DNA of 64,000 nucleotides from Gemmatimonadota bacterium (lineage in GTDB: Bacteria > Gemmatimonadota > Gemmatimonadetes > Gemmatimonadales > GWC2-71-9), in assembly GCA_003223395.1 (NCBI GenBank), contig QHUZ01000036.1:627-64626 (forward strand). The letters run 5' to 3'. Position numbers and translations under genes: made by a program. The notes under the pieces were generated by a model. It was given only the letters and a program-made list of their open reading frames with translations, was not told where the DNA came from and ran no database searches. Below, piece by piece: positions 426-46,426 of the stretch (its first letter is position 1; each line of letters opens with the position of its first letter).

Positions 426-1681
426 GTTTTCCTGGCCATCGGCCGGCGGTTCACCGCGCGGTGCCGGCGCGCGAGCTCGGCACGCACTTCCGCCAATGTC
501 GCGCCGCTACGCGCCAGAGCAACGAGCGCCATGTAGAACACGTCGGCCGTCTCACGCACGACGTCTTCAGATGACCTCGCCTCGGCCAGCTCGTCCGCTT
601 CCTCGCGCAGCTTTGCCCCGAGCAACTCGGGGTCGGCCAGCAAGCGCGCGGTTCCCGATCCGGGGACGGGTCTGGCGACGCGGTCAGCGAGCGTCCGCTC
701 CAGATCGGCCAGATCGAACTCCGCGGGCCAGCACGAGCGGCGATTCAGATGGCAGAACCCGGCGCCCGCCTGGCGTACCGTGAAACGCAGCGCGTCGCGG
801 TCGCAGTCCAGGTCCACGCGCACGAGCTGCTGGGAGTTCCCCGAAGTCTCGCCCTTCACCCAGAGCGATTGGCGTGAGCGCGACCAATAGATCCCGCGCC
901 GCTCGGCGACTGCGCGCGCGAGCGATTCCCGCGTGCTCCAGACGAGGCCGAGCGTATGGCCTGCCTCGTCGCAGACCACGGTCGGCCATACGTCGCCCGC
1001 CAACGGCTTCACGAGCGGCGCGGCGACCGCGTCGCCGAGCGACAGCTTGCCCGTGTAGATCGCCATACCGATCTGCGCATCCGCACCGAGGCGATCGAGC
1101 TCGGCCACCTCCTCCGAGGTGGTAATCCCACCGGCGGCAGTCACGCGCGCTCCCTCGGCTGAGCGCACCACGGCTGCGACCGCGGCGCAGTCGAACCCTC
1201 TCATCTCTCCTTCCTTCTCCACCTGTGTGAAGAGGAAGCCGCCTACGACCGGCGCGAGCGCGCGGACCTGCTCGAGCACAGGGACGCCTGTCTTTCGGCG
1301 CCACCCGTCGACCACGACCTTGCCGCGTTTCGCGTCCACAGCCGCGATGACGCGCTCGCGCGGCAAGGCGCCACAGAACTTCGGTGTGGCGGCGGTCCCG
1401 ATCATGAGCTGGACAGCGCCGGCGTCGAGCCAGCGACGCGCTGTTTCGAGATCGCGGATGCCTCCACCGACGCGACAGGGCGCGCGACGCACCAGATCCC
1501 GGATCAACGCGGCGTTCGAACCCTGGCCGAGCGCGGCGTCCAAATCCACGACCGCCACGTCTCCTGCGACGGAGAACTCATTCAACCGTTCGCGGGGATC
1601 GCCGCCGTCCAGGACGAATTCGCTGCCGCGCCGCAGCTGCACCGCGCGTCCACCCATGATGTCGATGCTCGGTACGATCAT
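422..1681 (-). CDS. hisA-hisIE: fusion protein: ProFAR isomerase (HisA) + PR-AMP cyclohydrolase (HisI) + PR-ATP pyrophosphatase (HisE)
   Basis: Single 419-aa ORF. Residues 1-218 form a HisA barrel ([21 protein letters not shown]). Residues 232-318 are HisI ([17 protein letters not shown]...DCDRDAL). Residues 325-410 are HisE ([15 protein letters not shown]...[11 protein letters not shown]). Confidence 0.85.
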
Positions 1682-3060
1682 TGCCGCACCCGAAATCCCC
1701 GGACCGCGAGGTCCGCCTTGATGCCATCAACCGTGTCGTCGCCATCGTGAAAGACCGATGCCGCCAGGACAGCGTCGGCCCCTCCGGCGAAGGCCGCGGC
1801 GACATGCGCCCGCGTTCCGACGCCGCCTGAAGCGATCACTGGGACCCGAACCGCGTCGGACACCGCGCGTAGCAGGTCGAGATCGTGCCCCACCCGCGTG
1901 CCGTCGCGATCCCAACTCGTGAGCAAGATCTCGCCCGCGCCAAGATTCTCACCTTCACGGGCCCACGCCACCGCGTCGGGCCGTGCGATCTCGCGGCCCC
2001 CGATCACCAGCACTTGCCAGTTCTCCGCCGCGCGCCGCGCATCGATCGCGAGCACGACACATTGGCGGCCAAAGGCCTGCGCCAACTCGGTCAGTAGCTC
2101 AGGACGACGGACCGCGGCCGTGTTGACGCTCACTTTGTCGGCGCCGGCGGCGAGCAGCTGCCGCGCATCGTCCACGCTGCGAACGCCGCCGCCCACGGTC
2201 AGTGGAATCCGGATCGCCGCACGGACCCGCCGCACCGTCTCGACCTGCGTGTCGCGCCCCTCGGCGGAGGCTGCAACATCGAGGATCACGATCTCGTCGG
2301 CGCCCTGCGCTTCGTACCGCGCCGCCTGCTCAGCGGGGTCGCCGGCGTCGCGCAGATCCTGGAAGCGGATGCCTTTGACAACGCGGCCGTCTTTCACATC
2401 GAGGCACGGAATGATGCGCCGAAACAAACCAGGCGATCCGTTCCCGGGGATACCCTCGGAGACCGGCCGCCCCGTCAGCCAGCGCTCCAGCAGCGCGGCG
2501 CCATACGCGCCCGACAGCTCCGGGTGAAACTGGCATGCGACCGTGGGTCCGCGTTCGAGCGCGGCAATGAACGGAACACCGTGCGTTGTCCAAGCCGGTG
2601 TCCATCCGTCTGGACTCTCGCACAACGCGTAGGAGTTGGCGAAGGCCGCGACGCCGCTCGTCACACACCGCGCTCCCGGCTCAGCCGTGACGCTGTTCCA
2701 GCCGAGGTGTGGGATTCGCACGGAGGGTGGCAGACGTCGACACGTTCCCGCCACAACGCCGAGCCCTCGGACTCCCGGCGCCTCCTCACTCGCGTCGCAG
2801 AGCATCTGCATCCCGAGACACACGCCGAGCAGCGGCGTTCCGCGGAGAGCGACATCGCGAATGATGATATCGAGACCCCGGGCGCGGAGCGCCGCCATGC
2901 CCGCGCCAAACGCGCCGACGCCCGGCAGGACGAGGCGCGCCGCGGTCCGCACGACGTCGGGGTCGGCGGTGACGGCGATCGTCGCGTTCAGACGGCGGAA
3001 CGCGCCGGCGATCGAGGCGAGGTTTGCAACCCGCGAGTCCACAATCACGAGCTCACTCAC
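1678..3060 (-). CDS. hisHF: imidazole glycerol phosphate synthase, fused HisH (glutaminase) and HisF (cyclase) subunits
   Basis: The track ORF 1678..3393 is over-extended. GTG at 3060 (VSELVIVDS) sits 8 nt inside the hisB end. HisH motifs are GVCLGMQML and QFHPE. A linker [16 protein letters not shown] is followed by HisF motifs [16 protein letters not shown] and [11 protein letters not shown]. Confidence 0.85.
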
Positions 3061-3658
3061 GCGGCTTCCCCAGCGTCCCTTTGGTGGATGGCACGTCGTC
3101 GAACGGTGTGATCTGTACGGCCTGCCGCAGGGCGAGGGCAACGGCCTTGAACGCCGCTTCCGCGCGATGGTGGTCGTTGGCTCCCTTGATGACCTCGACG
3201 TGCAGCGTGAGTCGCGCTGCCGTCGCGAGCGAGCGCAACACGTGCGGCACATTCTCGCAGGACAGACCGCCAATCGATTCCCGGCGCAGACCCAATGACA
3301 CGTCAGCGTACGCGCGACCGGAAAGATCCACCACCGCCCGGGCGAGTGATTCATCGAGCGGCGCATAGGCCCACCCGAAGCGGGCAATGCCACGCCGCTC
3401 GCCCAGTGCGCGGTCGAGCGCCTCGCCCAGCGTCAACGCGCAATCCTCCGCGGTGTGGTGATCGTCGACTTGGAGATCGCCGCGCGCTTCGACGGTGAGA
3501 TCCAGGCGGGCGTGGCGGGCCAGTGACTCCAGCAAATGGTCGAGAAAGCCGACGCCGGTGCGGATTTCGGTCCGCCCCGACCCGTCGACGGTAACCTCGG
3601 CGCGGATGGACGTCTCCCGCGTGGTACGTTCCGCGTTGGCTGTCCGGTCAGGCTTCAT
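3053..3658 (-). CDS. hisB: imidazoleglycerol-phosphate dehydratase
   Basis: 201 aa with [21 protein letters not shown] and [12 protein letters not shown] motifs. ATGA overlap with the hisC stop. Confidence 0.95.
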
Positions 3659-4665
3659 AGCGCGGGAGCCTCCTGCCCGAGCACCGACTCGAGCGCAGCG
3701 CTCAGACGCGCATAATCAGCGGGGTCCCCGGGCAGCGTGATTCTCAGACTCGTCTCGAGACCCGCGCGACCAGGGAAGTCGCGAACGAGTACTCCGCGCG
3801 CGCGGAGTCCGTCGCGGACGAAAGTCGCGCTCCCCCCGAAGTCCGCAAGCACGAAGTTCGCCTGTGAGGCGCGTGCAGCGGCGCCACGTGACACCAGCAA
3901 ATCACGAAGCGTCGCTCGTTCTTCGCGAACTCGCGTGACGTGATCGCGCAGAGTTGCTTCGCCAGCCCGCAATCGTGCGAGTGCCAGAGCGAGTGAGGGA
4001 GCCGCCACAGGATATGGCGCGCCCGCAGATCGTACTACAGCGATCACACTCAGGCTGCCGATCGCGTAGCCCACGCGGCACCCCGCCAGACCCCAGGCCT
4101 TCGACATCGTTCGAACGACTATCACGTTCTCGAGATCGAGCAGTGCGGGAGTGAGATCCTCGTCGGCGTACTCGACGTATGCGTGATCGATCAGCACCAC
4201 GGCGTTCCGAGCTGCGGCTGCGATGCGGCGCACGTCCTGCCGCGATGCGACCGCGCCCGTGGGGTTGTTGGGGGTCACGACGACTACGACGCCTGTGCGG
4301 GCGTCGAGGCGGCCGAGGACGTCGTCGACCGGAAACCCATTCTCGGGCCACGGCACTCGCACAATCGGCGCCCCAGCGAGTGCGGCGAACCGCTCGAACA
4401 TGTCGAAAGTGGGCACGGGGAGCAGCACTGAGCGATCGGGACCTGCATACGCCCGGCAGATGCGATCGAGCGCTTCATCGGCACCGGCCGTGACGACCAC
4501 ACGGTCAGGCGTCACGTCGATCCGGTCAGCGAGCGCCGCTTCGAGCACCGACGAATCGGAGTAGCGTCGAAGCAGCTCCGGGTCCAGCGCCGCCAGCTCG
4601 GCGAGCAGGGCTCGCGGTGGTGGCGGGCCTTCGTTGCTGTCGAGACGCAGGAGGCGCGCGCTCAT
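3655..4665 (-). CDS. hisC: histidinol-phosphate aminotransferase
   Basis: In-frame ATG at 4665 (MSARLLRLDSNEGPPPP) gives an ATGA overlap with the hisG stop. PLP lysine motif TMSKAWGLAGCRVGY is present. The upstream 62 codons of the track ORF overlap hisG. Confidence 0.85.
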   Translation of the reverse strand: MSARLLRLDSNEGPPPPRALLAELAALDPELLRRYSDSSVLEAALADRIDVTPDRVVVTAGADEALDRICRAYAGPDRSVLLPVPTFDMFERFAALAGAPIVRVPWPENGFPVDDVLGRLDARTGVVVVVTPNNPTGAVASRQDVRRIAAAARNAVVLIDHAYVEYADEDLTPALLDLENVIVVRTMSKAWGLAGCRVGYAIGSLSVIAVVRSAGAPYPVAAPSLALALARLRAGEATLRDHVTRVREERATLRDLLVSRGAAARASQANFVLADFGGSATFVRDGLRARGVLVRDFPGRAGLETSLRITLPGDPADYARLSAALESVLGQEAPAL

Positions 4666-5555
4666 GGCACGATCTGCGAGAGTGTGGAGACGACAACGTC
4701 GGTGCCGCCGGCCGCTTTCACCGCCGGGATCACTTGCGGCAGCAGCTCGCGCGGCACCGCGGCCTTCACTGCGTATCCGGTGTCGCCAAACAGCCGTGAT
4801 ACTGTCGCTTGTCGCATGGACGGCAGGACGGCCACGACCGCGTCGAGACACGCCGCCGAGGCGTTCACCTCCAGCATCACGCGGCGCCGCGCCTCGAGCA
4901 CGGAGTTTATCAGCAACACCAGATCGTCGATGAAGCGTCGCCGCACCGGATCATCGAGGGCCGCACGGTGGGCATACAGTCGCGTGGACGAGCGCATCAA
5001 CACATCGACAATCGCGAGGCCGTTTGCCCCGAGCGTCGCACCGGTTGCGGTGTTGTCGACGATCACGTCGGCGTCCTCGGGCGGAAACACTTCGGTCGCA
5101 CCGTAGGACCGAACGAATTCGGCGCATAAGCCGCTCGCGCTGATCCAGCGCCGCGCCAGTCGATCGTACTCCGACGCAACGATCAGGCGACGCTTGGGCA
5201 GTTGCCCGCCCTCGAGCAGCGCGACCGGCGCGGCGGCGACCAGCTGCACCGGATCGAGCCCCGTGTCGAGCAACTCGACGACGTCCGCGCCGCCCGCGCT
5301 GCCCTCGAGCTCCGCCACCCAGTCCGCCCCGGCGAAGCCCACGTCGCGGCTGCCGAGGGCCAGCATCTCCACGATGTTCTGGGGCTTCAGCATCTTCGCT
5401 TCGGCGCCCGCCAACGACACATCGGGCCGATAGCCGCGGGCGCTTGGGCGCACGCGAATGCCCGCGTCGGCGAGAAGCGTCAGGACGGCCTGCTCCATGC
5501 GGCCTTTGGGAAGGCCGAGCCGGAACGGGACAGCGCGTGGGACAAATGTGGACAT
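4662..5555 (-). CDS. hisG: ATP phosphoribosyltransferase (long form)
   Basis: Start at ATG 5555 (MSTFVPRAVPFRLGLPKGRM) with GGAG 9 nt upstream. About 297 aa, including a C-terminal regulatory-domain-like region. Confidence 0.9.
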   Translation of the reverse strand: MSTFVPRAVPFRLGLPKGRMEQAVLTLLADAGIRVRPSARGYRPDVSLAGAEAKMLKPQNIVEMLALGSRDVGFAGADWVAELEGSAGGADVVELLDTGLDPVQLVAAAPVALLEGGQLPKRRLIVASEYDRLARRWISASGLCAEFVRSYGATEVFPPEDADVIVDNTATGATLGANGLAIVDVLMRSSTRLYAHRAALDDPVRRRFIDDLVLLINSVLEARRRVMLEVNASAACLDAVVAVLPSMRQATVSRLFGDTGYAVKAAVPRELLPQVIPAVKAAGGTDVVVSTLSQIVP

Positions 5556-5610
5556 CGATCGGCTCCATGTTGGCCGACCCGACTCCCCCAGGTCACTCGG
5601 GCGCCGCCCC

Positions 5611-5647
5611 AAAAGCACGACGCCGGCCCTGGGGGGGGCCGGCGTCG
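5611..5647 (-). terminator. intrinsic terminator of the his leader (attenuator stem-loop)
   Basis: Perfect 12-bp GC stem (5618-5629 and 5636-5647, 6-nt loop). On the minus strand it is followed by TGCTTTTGGGG. It lies between the leader ORF and hisG. Confidence 0.6.
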
Positions 5648-5677
5648 GTGATGACTCAAGACTCTACACGCCTCCGG

Positions 5678-5734
5678 CTATCCCCCGTGCTCCGAGTGAC
5701 CGTGATGATGCCGGTGCGAAGAAGTGCGCTTCAT
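5678..5734 (-). CDS. hisL: his operon leader peptide, MKRTSSHRHHHGHSEHGG
   Basis: 18-codon ORF (ATG 5734, TAG 5680-5678) with 6 His codons. It is located between a promoter-like element and a terminator upstream of hisG. Confidence 0.65.
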   Translation of the reverse strand: MKRTSSHRHHHGHSEHGG

Positions 5735-5741
5735 TGACCGT

Positions 5742-5770
5742 GATATAGCGCAGCGGCGAAACTGTGTCAA
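5742..5770 (-). promoter_or_regulatory. sigma70-like promoter of the his leader/operon
   Basis: On the minus strand: TTGACA (5770-5765), a 17-nt spacer, then TATATC (5747-5742). The leader ATG begins 7 nt after the -10. Confidence 0.5.
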
Positions 5771-6804
5771 TGCGCATCAGCTTCATACCTCACACGCGCG
5801 GGGGCCGCATACGCATGATCGCGCTCGCGGCCATCCTGCCGCTGCTGTTCCTTGCCATCTGGCTCTTCACCGTAAAGATGCCGGGGCCAGCTTTCGCCGG
5901 CCCGTTACCGCCGCTCACGCCAAATCAGGAGCTGATCCGAGCGGGACTCCAACGCCACGTCCAGGCGCTGGCCGGCGACATCGGTGTGCGCAGCGACGAG
6001 ACCTATTCCAACGTCCAGCGCGCGGCGGTGTACATCGAACGCCGCCTGAAAGATCTCGGGTTTACCGTGATGTCGCAGGAGTACACCGCCCGCGATCACA
6101 GCTATCGCAACATCGAAGCGACGCTCTCCGGCCTGCCGGGCCATGCGCACGAAGTCGTGATCCTCGGCGCACACTACGACACCGCCGAGGATGCGCCGGG
6201 CGCGGACGACAATGCGAGCGGCGTCGCGGGCGTCCTCGAGCTCGCGCGGATCTTCGCCCAGGAGCACCAGGCGCGCACGATCCGCTTCGTGTTCTTCCCC
6301 AATGAAGAGCCGCCGTCATTTCCGACGGCCGACATGGGCAGCCGCCAGTACGCGACGGCCGCGCGCGCGCGCAACGATCAAATCGTGGCGATGCTGTCGA
6401 TCGAATCGATCGGTTATTACGACATGGACAAAGGCAGCCAGCGCTACCCGTTCCCGCTGAACCTCGCGTATCCGAATGTGGGCGACTTCATCGGGTTCGT
6501 GTCGAATCTCAGATCGCGCTCACTGCTGCATCGCGCGATCGGCGCGTTTCGCGCGCATGCCACGCTGCCGACACAAGGCGCGGCCGCTCCAGCGTGGGTC
6601 CCGGGCGTCTGGTGGTCGGACCACTGGTCTTTTTGGAGGGTGGGTTATCCCGCGATCATGATCACCGACACCGCGCCGTACCGGAACCCATTCTACCACA
6701 CACCGCAGGACACGCCCGACAAGCTCGACTACGACCGCATGGCCCGCGTCGTGCACGGGCTCACGCACGTCGTGCGGGCCCTCGCCGCACCATCGGGGAC
6801 GTGA
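5764..6804 (+). CDS. M28 family metallopeptidase (aminopeptidase-like), membrane-anchored or secreted
   Basis: Motif HEVVILGAHYDTAEDAPGADDNASGVAGVLELARIF. N-terminal hydrophobic segment. Start is GTG 5764 or ATG 5770. Confidence 0.85.
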   Translation: MSMRISFIPHTRGGRIRMIALAAILPLLFLAIWLFTVKMPGPAFAGPLPPLTPNQELIRAGLQRHVQALAGDIGVRSDETYSNVQRAAVYIERRLKDLGFTVMSQEYTARDHSYRNIEATLSGLPGHAHEVVILGAHYDTAEDAPGADDNASGVAGVLELARIFAQEHQARTIRFVFFPNEEPPSFPTADMGSRQYATAARARNDQIVAMLSIESIGYYDMDKGSQRYPFPLNLAYPNVGDFIGFVSNLRSRSLLHRAIGAFRAHATLPTQGAAAPAWVPGVWWSDHWSFWRVGYPAIMITDTAPYRNPFYHTPQDTPDKLDYDRMARVVHGLTHVVRALAAPSGT

Positions 6805-21861: not shown

Positions 21862-21897
21862 GGGAAAACTAAACCCCGCCCAAAAAATCGGGCGGGG
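21862..21897 (-). terminator. intrinsic terminator of cspA
   Basis: 8-bp GC stem ccccgccc/gggcgggg (21874-21881 and 21890-21897), followed on the minus strand by TTTAGTTTTCCC. Confidence 0.7.
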
Positions 21898-21920
21898 CGG
21901 AATCGGGTGAAGGGCGCGCT

Positions 21921-37999: not shown

Positions 38000-38017
38000 G
38001 CGACGCGTAACGACGAA

Positions 38018-38052
38018 GGGGCGGCTCCGCGCGGGCCGCCCTTCCTTTTTCT
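38018..38052 (+). terminator. intrinsic terminator
   Basis: gggcggc...gccgccc stem followed by ttcctttttct. The sequence is related to the terminator at 36241. Confidence 0.65.
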
Positions 38053-45573: not shown

Positions 45574-46426
45574 GGCGGTGGGAAAAGATAGGATTGCACG
45601 ACGGGTTGTGCTATGGACAGCCGCACTCTTTCTGGTGTGGCTGTTCGGCGTTTGGCCGCCACCGATCTGGTGGCGAACTCACGACCCCCGTTGCACGGCG
45701 ATGATGCGGTTACGTGCCGAGGTGCAGACGTGCCGTCGTGCGCCCGGGGAGTCACACGTCGGCATGTCGGCACGAGGGCGCGAGGATTCGCGACTGCTCG
45801 AGCGGATGGTCATCATCGCCGAGGATTCGCGATTCAAAACGCATCACGGGATCGATTTCATTGAAATGCGAGACGCGTGGGCCGCGGGCGGTCACCGCGG
45901 CGCGAGCACGATCACGCAGCAGCTCGCGAAGAACCTCTATCTCTCTCCGTCGCGCTCGATCTTCCGCAAACTGAAAGAAGCCGTGACGGCGGTGCGGCTC
46001 GAGTTGGCGCTCAGCAAGGACCGCATCATGGAGCTGTATCTGGAGAATGCGGAATTAGGGGCTGGGGTTTGGGGAATGGAGACCGCGAGCAGAGCCTACT
46101 TCGGCGTGGCCGTCTCGGCGCTGAGCGCAAATCAGGCCGCGCAACTGGCGGCCACGCTCCCCCAACCCCGAACCTCCAACCCCGCGTTCCGGCCCGCACG
46201 CATGCTTGCCCGGCGAGACTTGATTCTGGCGCGATACTTCGGTGGTGCGACTCCGGTGCCGCCCGCAGAGGAAGACTCGATTCCGATTCCGGTTATTCCG
46301 CCGATCGAGCCGCCAATTCTACCGCCGATACTGGACTCGCTCGTCATTCCGGATACGGTCGCGATCCCAGATACAACAAAGGACCACCCAGACTCGGGTG
46401 GTCCTCGCTTAGTCTACAAGCCGTAG
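45572..46426 (+). CDS. mtgA: monofunctional peptidoglycan glycosyltransferase (GT51)
   Basis: Motifs EDSRFKTHHGID, GASTITQQLAKN and RKLKEAVTAVRLE. Confidence 0.85.
   Translation: MAVGKDRIARRVVLWTAALFLVWLFGVWPPPIWWRTHDPRCTAMMRLRAEVQTCRRAPGESHVGMSARGREDSRLLERMVIIAEDSRFKTHHGIDFIEMRDAWAAGGHRGASTITQQLAKNLYLSPSRSIFRKLKEAVTAVRLELALSKDRIMELYLENAELGAGVWGMETASRAYFGVAVSALSANQAAQLAATLPQPRTSNPAFRPARMLARRDLILARYFGGATPVPPAEEDSIPIPVIPPIEPPILPPILDSLVIPDTVAIPDTTKDHPDSGGPRLVYKP

Follow-up and report, generated by a model that had tools for sequence, protein, structure and literature searches.

The stretch of DNA analysed here (the window: 64,000 nucleotides [nt] of contig QHUZ01000036.1, positions 627 to 64,626, from assembly GCA_003223395.1 of a Gemmatimonadota bacterium) carries on its minus strand a histidine biosynthesis operon, hisG-hisC-hisB-hisHF, and the short leader region preceding hisG is the subject of this work. 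As assigned by Pfam on the minus-strand open reading frames (ORFs), the genes 3′ of the leader are hisG (4662..5555; long form, HisG plus HisG_C), hisC (3655-4665; a class I/II aminotransferase in the hisC position), hisB (3053-3658; IGPD), and a hisH-hisF fusion (1678 to about 3009; GATase and His_biosynth in a single ORF). The ATG of hisG, the first gene that the leader would regulate, lies at 5555 and is preceded by a Shine-Dalgarno (SD) sequence, GGAG, at 5563-5566; the encoded protein is 95% identical to HisG of Gemmatimonadales soil metagenome-assembled genomes (MAGs). Based on the elements found in the leader, their conservation, their geometry, their covariation, and the energetics of their folding, we propose, with a probability of roughly 85%, that this region is a ribosome-mediated leader-peptide transcription attenuator, tying expression of hisG-hisC-hisB-hisHF to charged tRNA-His.

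Leader ORF, promoter, and RNA segments in the window

The leader ORF (5678..5734, on the minus strand, as are all leader features described below) comprises 18 codons followed by TAG (i.e., ATG AAG CGC ACT TCT TCG CAC CGG CAT CAT CAC GGT CAC TCG GAG CAC GGG GGA TAG) and encodes MKRTSSHRHHHGHSEHGG. Six of the 18 codons specify His, five of which fall within the putative regulatory codons 7-13 (CAC CGG CAU CAU CAC GGU CAC, H R H H H G H; 5696..5716), and a further His is encoded by codon 16 (5687-5689). A scripted search for short ATG ORFs with at least five His in eight codons returned exactly one such ORF in the whole window. Upstream, a -35 box (TTGACA, 5765..5770) and a -10 box (TATATC, 5742..5747) stand 17 nt apart, and 7 nt lie between the -10 box and the leader AUG. 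No SD is present, and the ORF is predicted to be leaderless, with a 5′ untranslated region (UTR) of about 0-1 nt. The initial annotation of this DNA had described the same succession of promoter boxes, 18-codon ORF, 12-bp hairpin, and hisG, and all of these coordinates were reproduced on the minus strand.

Within and downstream of the ORF, four RNA segments can pair in alternative ways. The core of segment 1 (CCGGC, 5710..5714), which extends from the end of His7 through Arg8 CGG to the start of His9, pairs with GCCGG of segment 2, thereby forming an anti-antiterminator. Segment 2 is the 5′ strand of the antiterminator (GGGGGAUAGCCGGAGGCGU, 5668..5686) and includes the leader stop UAG (5678-5680). 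Segment 3 consists of the terminator 5′ arm (CGACGCCGGCCC, 5636-5647) together with the loop CCCCCA (5630-5635), and segment 4 is the terminator 3′ arm (GGGCCGGCGUCG, or GGGCCGGCGTCG in DNA letters; 5618..5629), with a U-tract (UGCUUUUGGGG, 5607..5617) directly 3′ of the stem. The terminator hairpin, a perfect 12-bp GC stem with a 6-nt loop followed by TGCTTTTGGGG, has an energy of -27.4 kcal/mol and leaves about 55 nt from the U-tract to the hisG ATG. The initial annotation had named this hairpin as a terminator, a call made again by an independent consensus scan. Its proposal of an antiterminator spanning the leader stop was likewise borne out: according to RNAduplex, 5687-5667 forms with the 5′ arm plus loop a duplex of 13 bp (5+3+5) at -23.5 kcal/mol, in which the C-run of the segment 3 loop pairs with GGGGG of segment 2. 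As the antiterminator and the terminator share the segment 3 strand, they are mutually exclusive. What the initial annotation had missed is the conserved 1:2 helix between CCGGC of the His-Arg-His codons and GCCGG of segment 2, which makes the leader a full four-segment attenuator.

A 10-bp complementarity between GGUCACUCGG in the His codons (5701-5692) and CCGAGUGACC beyond the terminator (5600-5591), also pointed out in the initial annotation, is present in the window and is included in the minimum free energy (MFE) structure of the full leader. This helix exceeded background in the window alone (z = -2.6) and weakly in relatives L006/L007; among the relatives, none fell below a z-score of -1.9, and most lay near or above zero relative to shuffles. 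As it is not conserved, we rejected it as a part of the device and take it as lineage-specific or fortuitous.

Conservation and covariation of the leader among relatives

The relatives consisted of 80 loci with HisG homologues, down to about 63% identity, from Gemmatimonadota and at least eight other groups, with taxon labels being those of the MAG records. The initial annotation had pointed to His-run mini-ORFs upstream of hisG in related genomes as a feature to be sought; most of the loci have such an in-frame His-rich mini-ORF there, and under a strict definition (an ATG-initiated short ORF in which 8 codons include 5 or more His), we found them in 52/80 regions upstream of hisG, compared with 0/2815 control windows (300 nt, same loci, both strands) and 0/4000 shuffles. 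His codons vary between CAC and CAU in the leader alignment, and differences in the length of the His run amount to whole codons, which is what translated regulatory codons would be expected to show. The leader peptides differ in sequence outside the His run, and their length ranges from 18 to 35 residues.

The promoter is conserved together with its spacing to the ORF. More specifically, a TTGAC-type -35 in the corresponding position and a TAnnnN -10 are found in 58/59 leaders, with 16-18 nt between them, and the -10 ends 5-11 nt (mode 7) before the leader AUG, again in 58/59. Promoter scores of >=8.5 were obtained for 35/59 leaders; random ATGs of these loci reached such a score in 0.7% of cases, at scattered distances. 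An SD-like tetramer precedes the leader ORF in 5/59 leaders. These sequence features agree with the initial annotation's suggestion of a leaderless or nearly leaderless transcript, and our prediction for every carrier lineage is a leader ORF without a 5′ UTR or with one no longer than a few nt. In our view, the conserved promoter-AUG geometry argues strongly, if indirectly, for functional leaderless translation in these phyla and for its use within a regulatory device. Downstream of the ORF, 55/59 leaders have a GC-rich hairpin with a U-rich tail, and in most of these the leader stop and the start of the 5′ arm are 27-38 nt apart. Antiterminator duplexes in relatives range from -15 to -29 kcal/mol, and their 5′ strand lies within -12 to +15 nt of the leader stop in 44/55 loci.

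A covariance model (R1) was built from 52 leaders. In the window, R1 matched 5610..5719 (90.1 bits, E about 1e-22), the sole significant match on the minus strand of the 64 kb, and among the relatives it gave a full-length match directly upstream of hisG in 60/80 loci (E <= 1.3e-5), nine of them outside the training set. Elsewhere in 560 kb, R1 found nothing comparable, the weak matches being mostly reverse-strand echoes of the palindromic stem. When a regular expression for the core hairpin was used, GC-rich coding sequence and the reverse strand of the hairpin were matched as well; a U-tract accompanies only the leader copies. The element is present in 39/39 Gemmatimonadota loci, Longimicrobiales included, which group as a single clade in a HisG neighbour-joining tree. 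The element was also found in Phycisphaerae (5/5), other Planctomycetota (3/3), Myxococcota (3/9), Acidobacteriota (2/3), and Sumerlaeota (1/3), as well as in single loci of Spirochaetota, Rhodothermia, Eisenbacteria, and Thermodesulfobacteriota, and was absent from loci labelled Alphaproteobacteria (0/4) and Bradymonadia (0/3). The nineteen loci without an R1 match (L035, L045, L046, L050-L052, L054, L056, L058, L061, L063, L069-L073, L075, L079, and L080) are mostly labelled Myxococcota, Bradymonadia, Alphaproteobacteria, and Sumerlaeota. Several carriers lie on contigs of 0.1-5 Mb, which makes gross mis-binning unlikely.

Four blocks are conserved in the leader alignments, and all share a CCGG core: segment 1, CAC-CGG-CAU within the His run; segment 2, GGGGGnAGCCGGAGGCG; segment 3, GACGCCGGCCCC followed by the C-rich loop; and segment 4, GGGGCCGGCGUC followed by U's. 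In alignment A1, which comprises 26 Gemmatimonadales leaders, nearly all columns are invariant, and pair counts were taken instead on A2, which comprises 52 leaders. The 6-bp core CGCCGG/CCGGCG is invariant in 52/52 aligned leaders, with HisG identity down to about 63-70%. Likewise, the Arg CGG that interrupts the His run (5711-5713) is invariant in 25/26 A1 leaders (the exception being L047), an invariance that we attribute to the RNA level, because this codon supplies the CCGG core of segment 1. In many leaders, the His run is directly followed by His-Pro (CAC CCG), of which CCG pairs with the segment 2 G-run in the RNAalifold consensus; E. coli hisL likewise has His-Pro after its His run.

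Segment 2 is kept irrespective of whether it is translated. In one Gemmatimonadales clade (L010-L016, L020-L025, L036, and L049), the block GGGGGnAGCCGGAGGCG is in frame and codes for Gly-Gly-Gln-Pro-Glu-Ala (GGQPEA), with the stop about 12 nt later, whereas in the clade of the window the same nucleotides hold the stop codon (GGG GGA UAG ccg gag gcg). This leader extension of 8-10 codons can be gained or lost through a single U-to-C or U-to-G change, with no disturbance of the switch. In many divergent loci, the stop codon is bulged within the antiterminator strand (GGCCGG-UGA-nGGUGU). That segment 2 is coding in one clade and stop-spanning in another indicates that the RNA and the stop position are under selection, and not the peptide tail.

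We assessed all three helices by pair counts in the 52 leaders, relative to shuffled alignments and to controls in which the strands were slid. For terminator 3:4, 93.2% of cells are paired, 6 pairs have changed on both sides, and the covariation score is 0.176 versus 0.128 for shuffled alignments, with 0/500 shuffles reaching it and slid controls scoring <= 0.074. For antiterminator 2:3, 87.9% of cells are paired (0/500), 6 pairs have changed on both sides (1/500), and slid controls are <= 64% paired. For anti-antiterminator 1:2, 85.1% versus 76.2% of cells are paired, 5/5 pairs have changed on both sides (25 cells), and the covariation score is 0.305 versus 0.182, with 0/500 shuffles reaching it and slid controls scoring <= 0.125. 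Helices 1:2 and 3:4 were also recovered independently in the RNAalifold consensus.

Because the core hardly varies and clades differ in their 2:3 register, we added a swap test, in which the stop-codon region of each locus was combined with its own 5′ arm plus loop or with the arms of 42 other loci, followed by double centring. The own partner was better by -1.87 kcal/mol (0/10000 permutations), and by -2.29 kcal/mol for the 24 most divergent loci (0/10000 permutations). Three-way compensation is visible in individual loci. In L068, a 5′ arm CGCUGG occurs with an antiterminator strand GGCCAGC; in L031/L032, CCGGGC pairs with GUCCGG/GCCCGG; and in L040, a loop GCU pairs with an upstream GCGG.

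Ribosome position, folding energetics, and competing explanations

The sequence of events that we propose is as follows. Judging from promoter geometry, transcription would begin with the leader AUG itself or 1 nt upstream of it, and a 70S ribosome would load on this 5′ AUG. With His-tRNA plentiful, the ribosome would reach the UAG and cover segment 2, and helix 3:4 with its U-tract would terminate transcription, yielding a predicted attenuated transcript of ~120-125 nt (from about 5734 to about 5611). With His-tRNA scarce, a ribosome stalled on codons 7-11 would mask segment 1 and leave segment 2 free to capture the emerging segment 3, such that the terminator would not form in time and RNA polymerase would read into hisG. 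In the absence of translation, 1:2 would pair and the terminator would then form. The start of transcription, ORF translation, termination, and the histidine response are the inferred parts of this scheme.

Folding of partial and complete transcripts is consistent with the order of these events. For a nascent transcript ending at the loop, i.e., lacking the 3′ arm, the MFE structure is the antiterminator (GGGGG..GCCGG / CCGGC..CCCCC), whereas in the full transcript without a ribosome segment 1 pairs with segment 2 (CCGGCAUC with GAU.AGCCGG). Equilibrium MFE folds with ribosome masks were discarded as a test of the switch, given that the terminator was always kept, and nascent snapshots together with a "holding energy" were used instead. 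Thus, the comparison of alternative folds envisaged in the initial annotation supported its antiterminator in the nascent transcript and failed to displace the terminator at equilibrium in any ribosome state.

The holding energy, defined as the energy keeping the 5′ arm plus loop in an alternative structure, was computed for 54 loci in three states of a modelled ribosome. Its mean was -13.5 kcal/mol for a stall at the His cluster, -5.3 kcal/mol for a ribosome at the stop codon, and -6.3 kcal/mol without a ribosome, and the stalled state had the strongest holding energy in 54/54 loci, in keeping, in silico, with the hisL-type ribosome logic put forward in the initial annotation. When the A-site was moved along the leader of the window, holding energy formed a plateau of -14.2 to -15.4 kcal/mol at codons 9-12 (H H H G) and dropped sharply, to between -5.6 and -2.7 kcal/mol, from codon 13, where the ribosome starts to cover segment 2. 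Across the family, the same scan gave an average of -12.2 kcal/mol for His codons versus -7.8 kcal/mol for other codons, with the same direction in 54/54 loci. By this model, the main His cluster is placed where a stall would mask segment 1 yet free segment 2. A count of the 5′-arm nucleotides captured by upstream RNA gave a modest signal (0.72 vs 0.52) and was dropped in favour of the energy measure, because weak 1:3 pairing, made possible by the CCGG cores that these segments share, confounds the count.

Several observations weigh against the attenuator proposal. The terminator (-27.4 kcal/mol) beats the antiterminator at equilibrium in every ribosome state, so that the switch, as modelled, must be kinetic; the E. 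coli trp switch is also kinetic, 3:4 being more stable than 2:3. The ribosome footprint used in the model (-15 to +14 nt) is an assumption, and a ribosome stalled at His13 or His16 would cover segment 2, thus favouring termination. Covariation of 2:3 is modest (0.163 vs 0.151 shuffled, with 13/500 shuffles reaching the score), which we ascribe to the nearly invariant core, and the 1:2 counts hinge on the alignment of repetitive His codons, which is uncertain. In the window, the U-tract has only four consecutive U; U runs in relatives are longer (UGCUUUUUUU in L001 and UUUUUUUU in L024). Finally, the -10 box TATATC ends in C and lacks the usual final T, and a generic sigma-70 consensus scan, which demands T as the last -10 base, did not call the promoter. 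For this reason, we replaced the generic scan with the conservation and geometry test, and we regard conservation of the promoter in relatives as outweighing the missing call.

We weighed four other explanations of the leader. It might sense histidine with a mainly translational output, in which the hisG SD is exposed or hidden and the hairpin is chiefly structural. The short U-tract of the window would fit this explanation, as would the recurrence in relatives of a hairpin between an anti-SD and the hisG SD, and there is a precedent in a mycobacterial leaderless Cys short ORF (sORF) that works on a ribosome-binding site (10.1101/834739). However, a purely translational switch has no need of a U-tract, and a GC-rich stem with a U-rich tail is found in 55/59 leaders; the SD hairpin, for its part, is not positionally conserved, is atypical in the window, and lies downstream of and separate from the 1-4 switch, such that both layers could coexist. 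We therefore regard a mainly translational output as unlikely. Alternatively, the CGCCGG...CCGGCG hairpin could be a site for a trans-acting protein or RNA that controls termination, with the His ORF being secondary or unrelated, an idea drawing on the invariance of the 6-bp core in 52 leaders, which exceeds the needs of a plain terminator. Use of the CCGG core in 1:2, 2:3, and 3:4 explains this invariance without a factor. Conservation of the hairpin goes along with that of the in-frame His run, of the spacing between promoter and AUG, and of the stop codon position, and no candidate regulator gene is linked to the leader, its neighbour being an M28 peptidase gene; we hold such a factor to be quite improbable.

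That the ORF encodes a functional His-rich micropeptide (e.g., a metal-binding one) co-transcribed with the his genes, with the hairpin being an ordinary structure, seems to us very improbable. His-rich peptides can bind metals and the leader ORF is conserved, but the peptides vary outside the His run and in length (18 to 35 residues), conservation at their C terminus reflects the RNA (these nucleotides encode residues in one clade and span the stop in another), and the ORF is always immediately before hisG and followed by the terminator. As for a chance ORF beside the terminator of a neighbouring gene, the silence of the generic promoter scan and a whole-leader fold z-score of just -1.9 could be cited in its favour. 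Such ORFs are missing from all 2815 control windows and 4000 shuffles, though, and the element recurs in 60/80 loci; moreover, the upstream neighbour of the leader, the M28 peptidase gene, is divergent, and neither strand has a gene ending at this hairpin. We give chance next to no credence and regard this explanation as effectively refuted.

Relation to known systems and neighbouring features

The leader shares the logic of enterobacterial hisL (RF00514, His_leader): a short ORF with clustered His codons between promoter and hisG, an exclusive choice between terminator and antiterminator that is decided by ribosome position, and termination by default without translation. It differs in having no detectable homology to RF00514, in its host phyla, and in that the RF00514 leader ORF is preceded by an SD within a longer 5′ leader, whereas the Gemmatimonadales ORF has no SD and abuts the promoter. 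In addition, its His run is broken by the conserved Arg CGG, itself part of segment 1. Consistently, RF00514 gave no match at E<=10 in 5300-6000 of the window and none at gathering score in 19 diverse relatives, and the same held for the T-box (RF00230) in the window region and in the 19 relatives. At gathering score, Rfam returned one unrelated tRNA only from these relatives, and permissive matches in the region (6C RNA and snoRNA models) were set aside as noise from the GC hairpin. The his leader of Salmonella and E. coli is a more elaborate, multi-hairpin structure, and the leader of the window is four-segment like that of trp. In E. coli trpL, too, segments pair as 1:2, 2:3, and 3:4, the stop lies near segment 2, and competition is kinetic, with the terminator being more stable; trpL differs in its amino acid, in an SD-dependent leader ORF, and in lacking a repeated palindromic core.

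According to a 2022 survey, attenuators control the his genes of Proteobacteria, T-boxes control those of Firmicutes and Actinobacteria, and new His-leader attenuators occur in three Firmicutes lineages in which no RF00514 was found (PMC9413887). His leader peptides have also been described upstream of hisS/hisZ in bacilli (Naville and Gautheret, PMC2965389). These Firmicutes leaders (Bacillus cereus group hisZ/hisS, Peptostreptococcaceae, and Erysipelotrichales) resemble ours in being independent, predicted non-RF00514 systems with terminator and antiterminator, found by comparative genomics (PMC9413887, PMC2965389). They differ in sequence, phyla, and first genes, and the papers report neither a leaderless geometry nor a cross-phylum invariant core. 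In Deinococcus deserti, leader ORFs that begin at the mapped transcription start (5′-AUG, or a start at -1) precede genes for amino-acid biosynthesis and tRNA synthetases, and the main text describes 14 leaderless leader peptides predicted to act in transcription attenuation, with no histidine case among those it presents (PMC4007540). This is another phylum, and the start sites reported there are experimental, whereas those of the Gemmatimonadales leader derive from promoter geometry. The mycobacterial polycysteine sORFs are similar in that a leaderless ORF rich in the cognate amino acid serves as a ribosome-stalling sensor for an operon; they differ in using Cys, not His, and in their output, an unmasked downstream ribosome-binding site rather than intrinsic termination (10.1101/834739). 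A 2024 analysis lists for Gemmatimonadetes a low value, 22, in what is apparently a percentage-SD column, the heading being unconfirmed (PMC10783764); such a value would be consistent with initiation often proceeding without an SD in this phylum.

The system type is textbook, its leaderless variant has precedents, and the mechanism is unsurprising to a specialist. What appears to be new is this his leader family and its universality in Gemmatimonadota, the recognisable sequence homology of the leader across several phyla, and the four-fold palindromic CCGG design with its invariant core. In our literature search, no leader-peptide attenuation was described for Gemmatimonadetes (full-text search), Planctomycetes, or Myxococcota, with the broad 2010 survey by Lopatovskaya et al. 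and the D. deserti supplement outside its coverage and a prior mention there possible. Together with the Rfam results, this agrees with the view of the initial annotation that such a device was undescribed for the lineage. As far as we found, it would be the first cis-regulatory mechanism defined for amino-acid biosynthesis in Gemmatimonadota, a phylum abundant in soil and barely studied, and it adds a family absent from Rfam, whose 18-codon ORF and RNA are both missed by annotation pipelines.

We are evenly divided on whether all carriers represent one ancient, homologous attenuator family rather than convergent ones, a family that would be obligatorily leaderless and "frozen" by its CCGG core, universal in Gemmatimonadota, common to Planctomycetota/Phycisphaerae, and present in some Myxococcota, Acidobacteriota, Sumerlaeota, Spirochaetota, and others. 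If true, it would be the most widely distributed homologous leader-peptide attenuator known, and leaderless translation coupled to attenuation would be an old and stable regulatory design. In either case, the invariant four-fold CCGG core across phyla bears on the repeated origin versus very long persistence of leader-peptide attenuators. The element spans ~125 nt and has a clear predicted output (a short terminated RNA versus read-through), which renders it easily testable, and the leader could serve as a histidine-responsive part for high-GC hosts.

Further features were noted in and around the leader. In the spacer between segments 2 and 3 (5650-5660), the motif CUUGAGUC(C)AUC is kept in most Gemmatimonadales leaders and may serve for pausing or as a loop element. 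In most relatives, the stretch from the terminator to the hisG AUG can form a hairpin in which an anti-SD (CUCC(G)) pairs with the hisG SD ((C)GGAG), located at 5556-5610 in the window and with equivalents in L004, L009, L011, L016-L020, L023, and L029. Its partner sequences vary (GACUCCG/CGGAGUC, GCUCCGA/UCGGAGC, and GAUCUG.CUC/GAG.CAGAUC), and the version of the window, GGUCGGCC/GCCGAUC, is atypical in that GGAG is mostly in the loop. RNAalifold found no consensus in the post-terminator region, as the partners are not positionally homologous. This hairpin may constitute a second, translational layer of control.

At the other end of the leader, the ORF of the M28 peptidase gene, as delimited mechanically on the plus strand, begins with GTG at 5764 and thus overlaps the -35 box of the leader promoter. 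Its true start is probably further downstream, the scan of this ORF having been run from 5812, and the two divergent promoters must share a region of ~50-100 bp. Within the operon, the fusion of GATase and His_biosynth at 1678-3009 resembles fungal/plant HIS7, bacteria usually having two genes, and an ORF at 422-1681 overlaps the fusion by ATGA. A scan of the 64 kb for like devices serving other amino acids found none. Strong intrinsic-terminator-like hairpins (stem of at least 7 bp, at least 5 GC pairs, and a U-rich tail) number four in the window, namely 38017-38043 (plus strand), 46379-46406 (minus strand), 21873-21898 (minus strand), and that of the his attenuator; canonical terminators seem rare in the source genome, and the attenuator hairpin is among the strongest.

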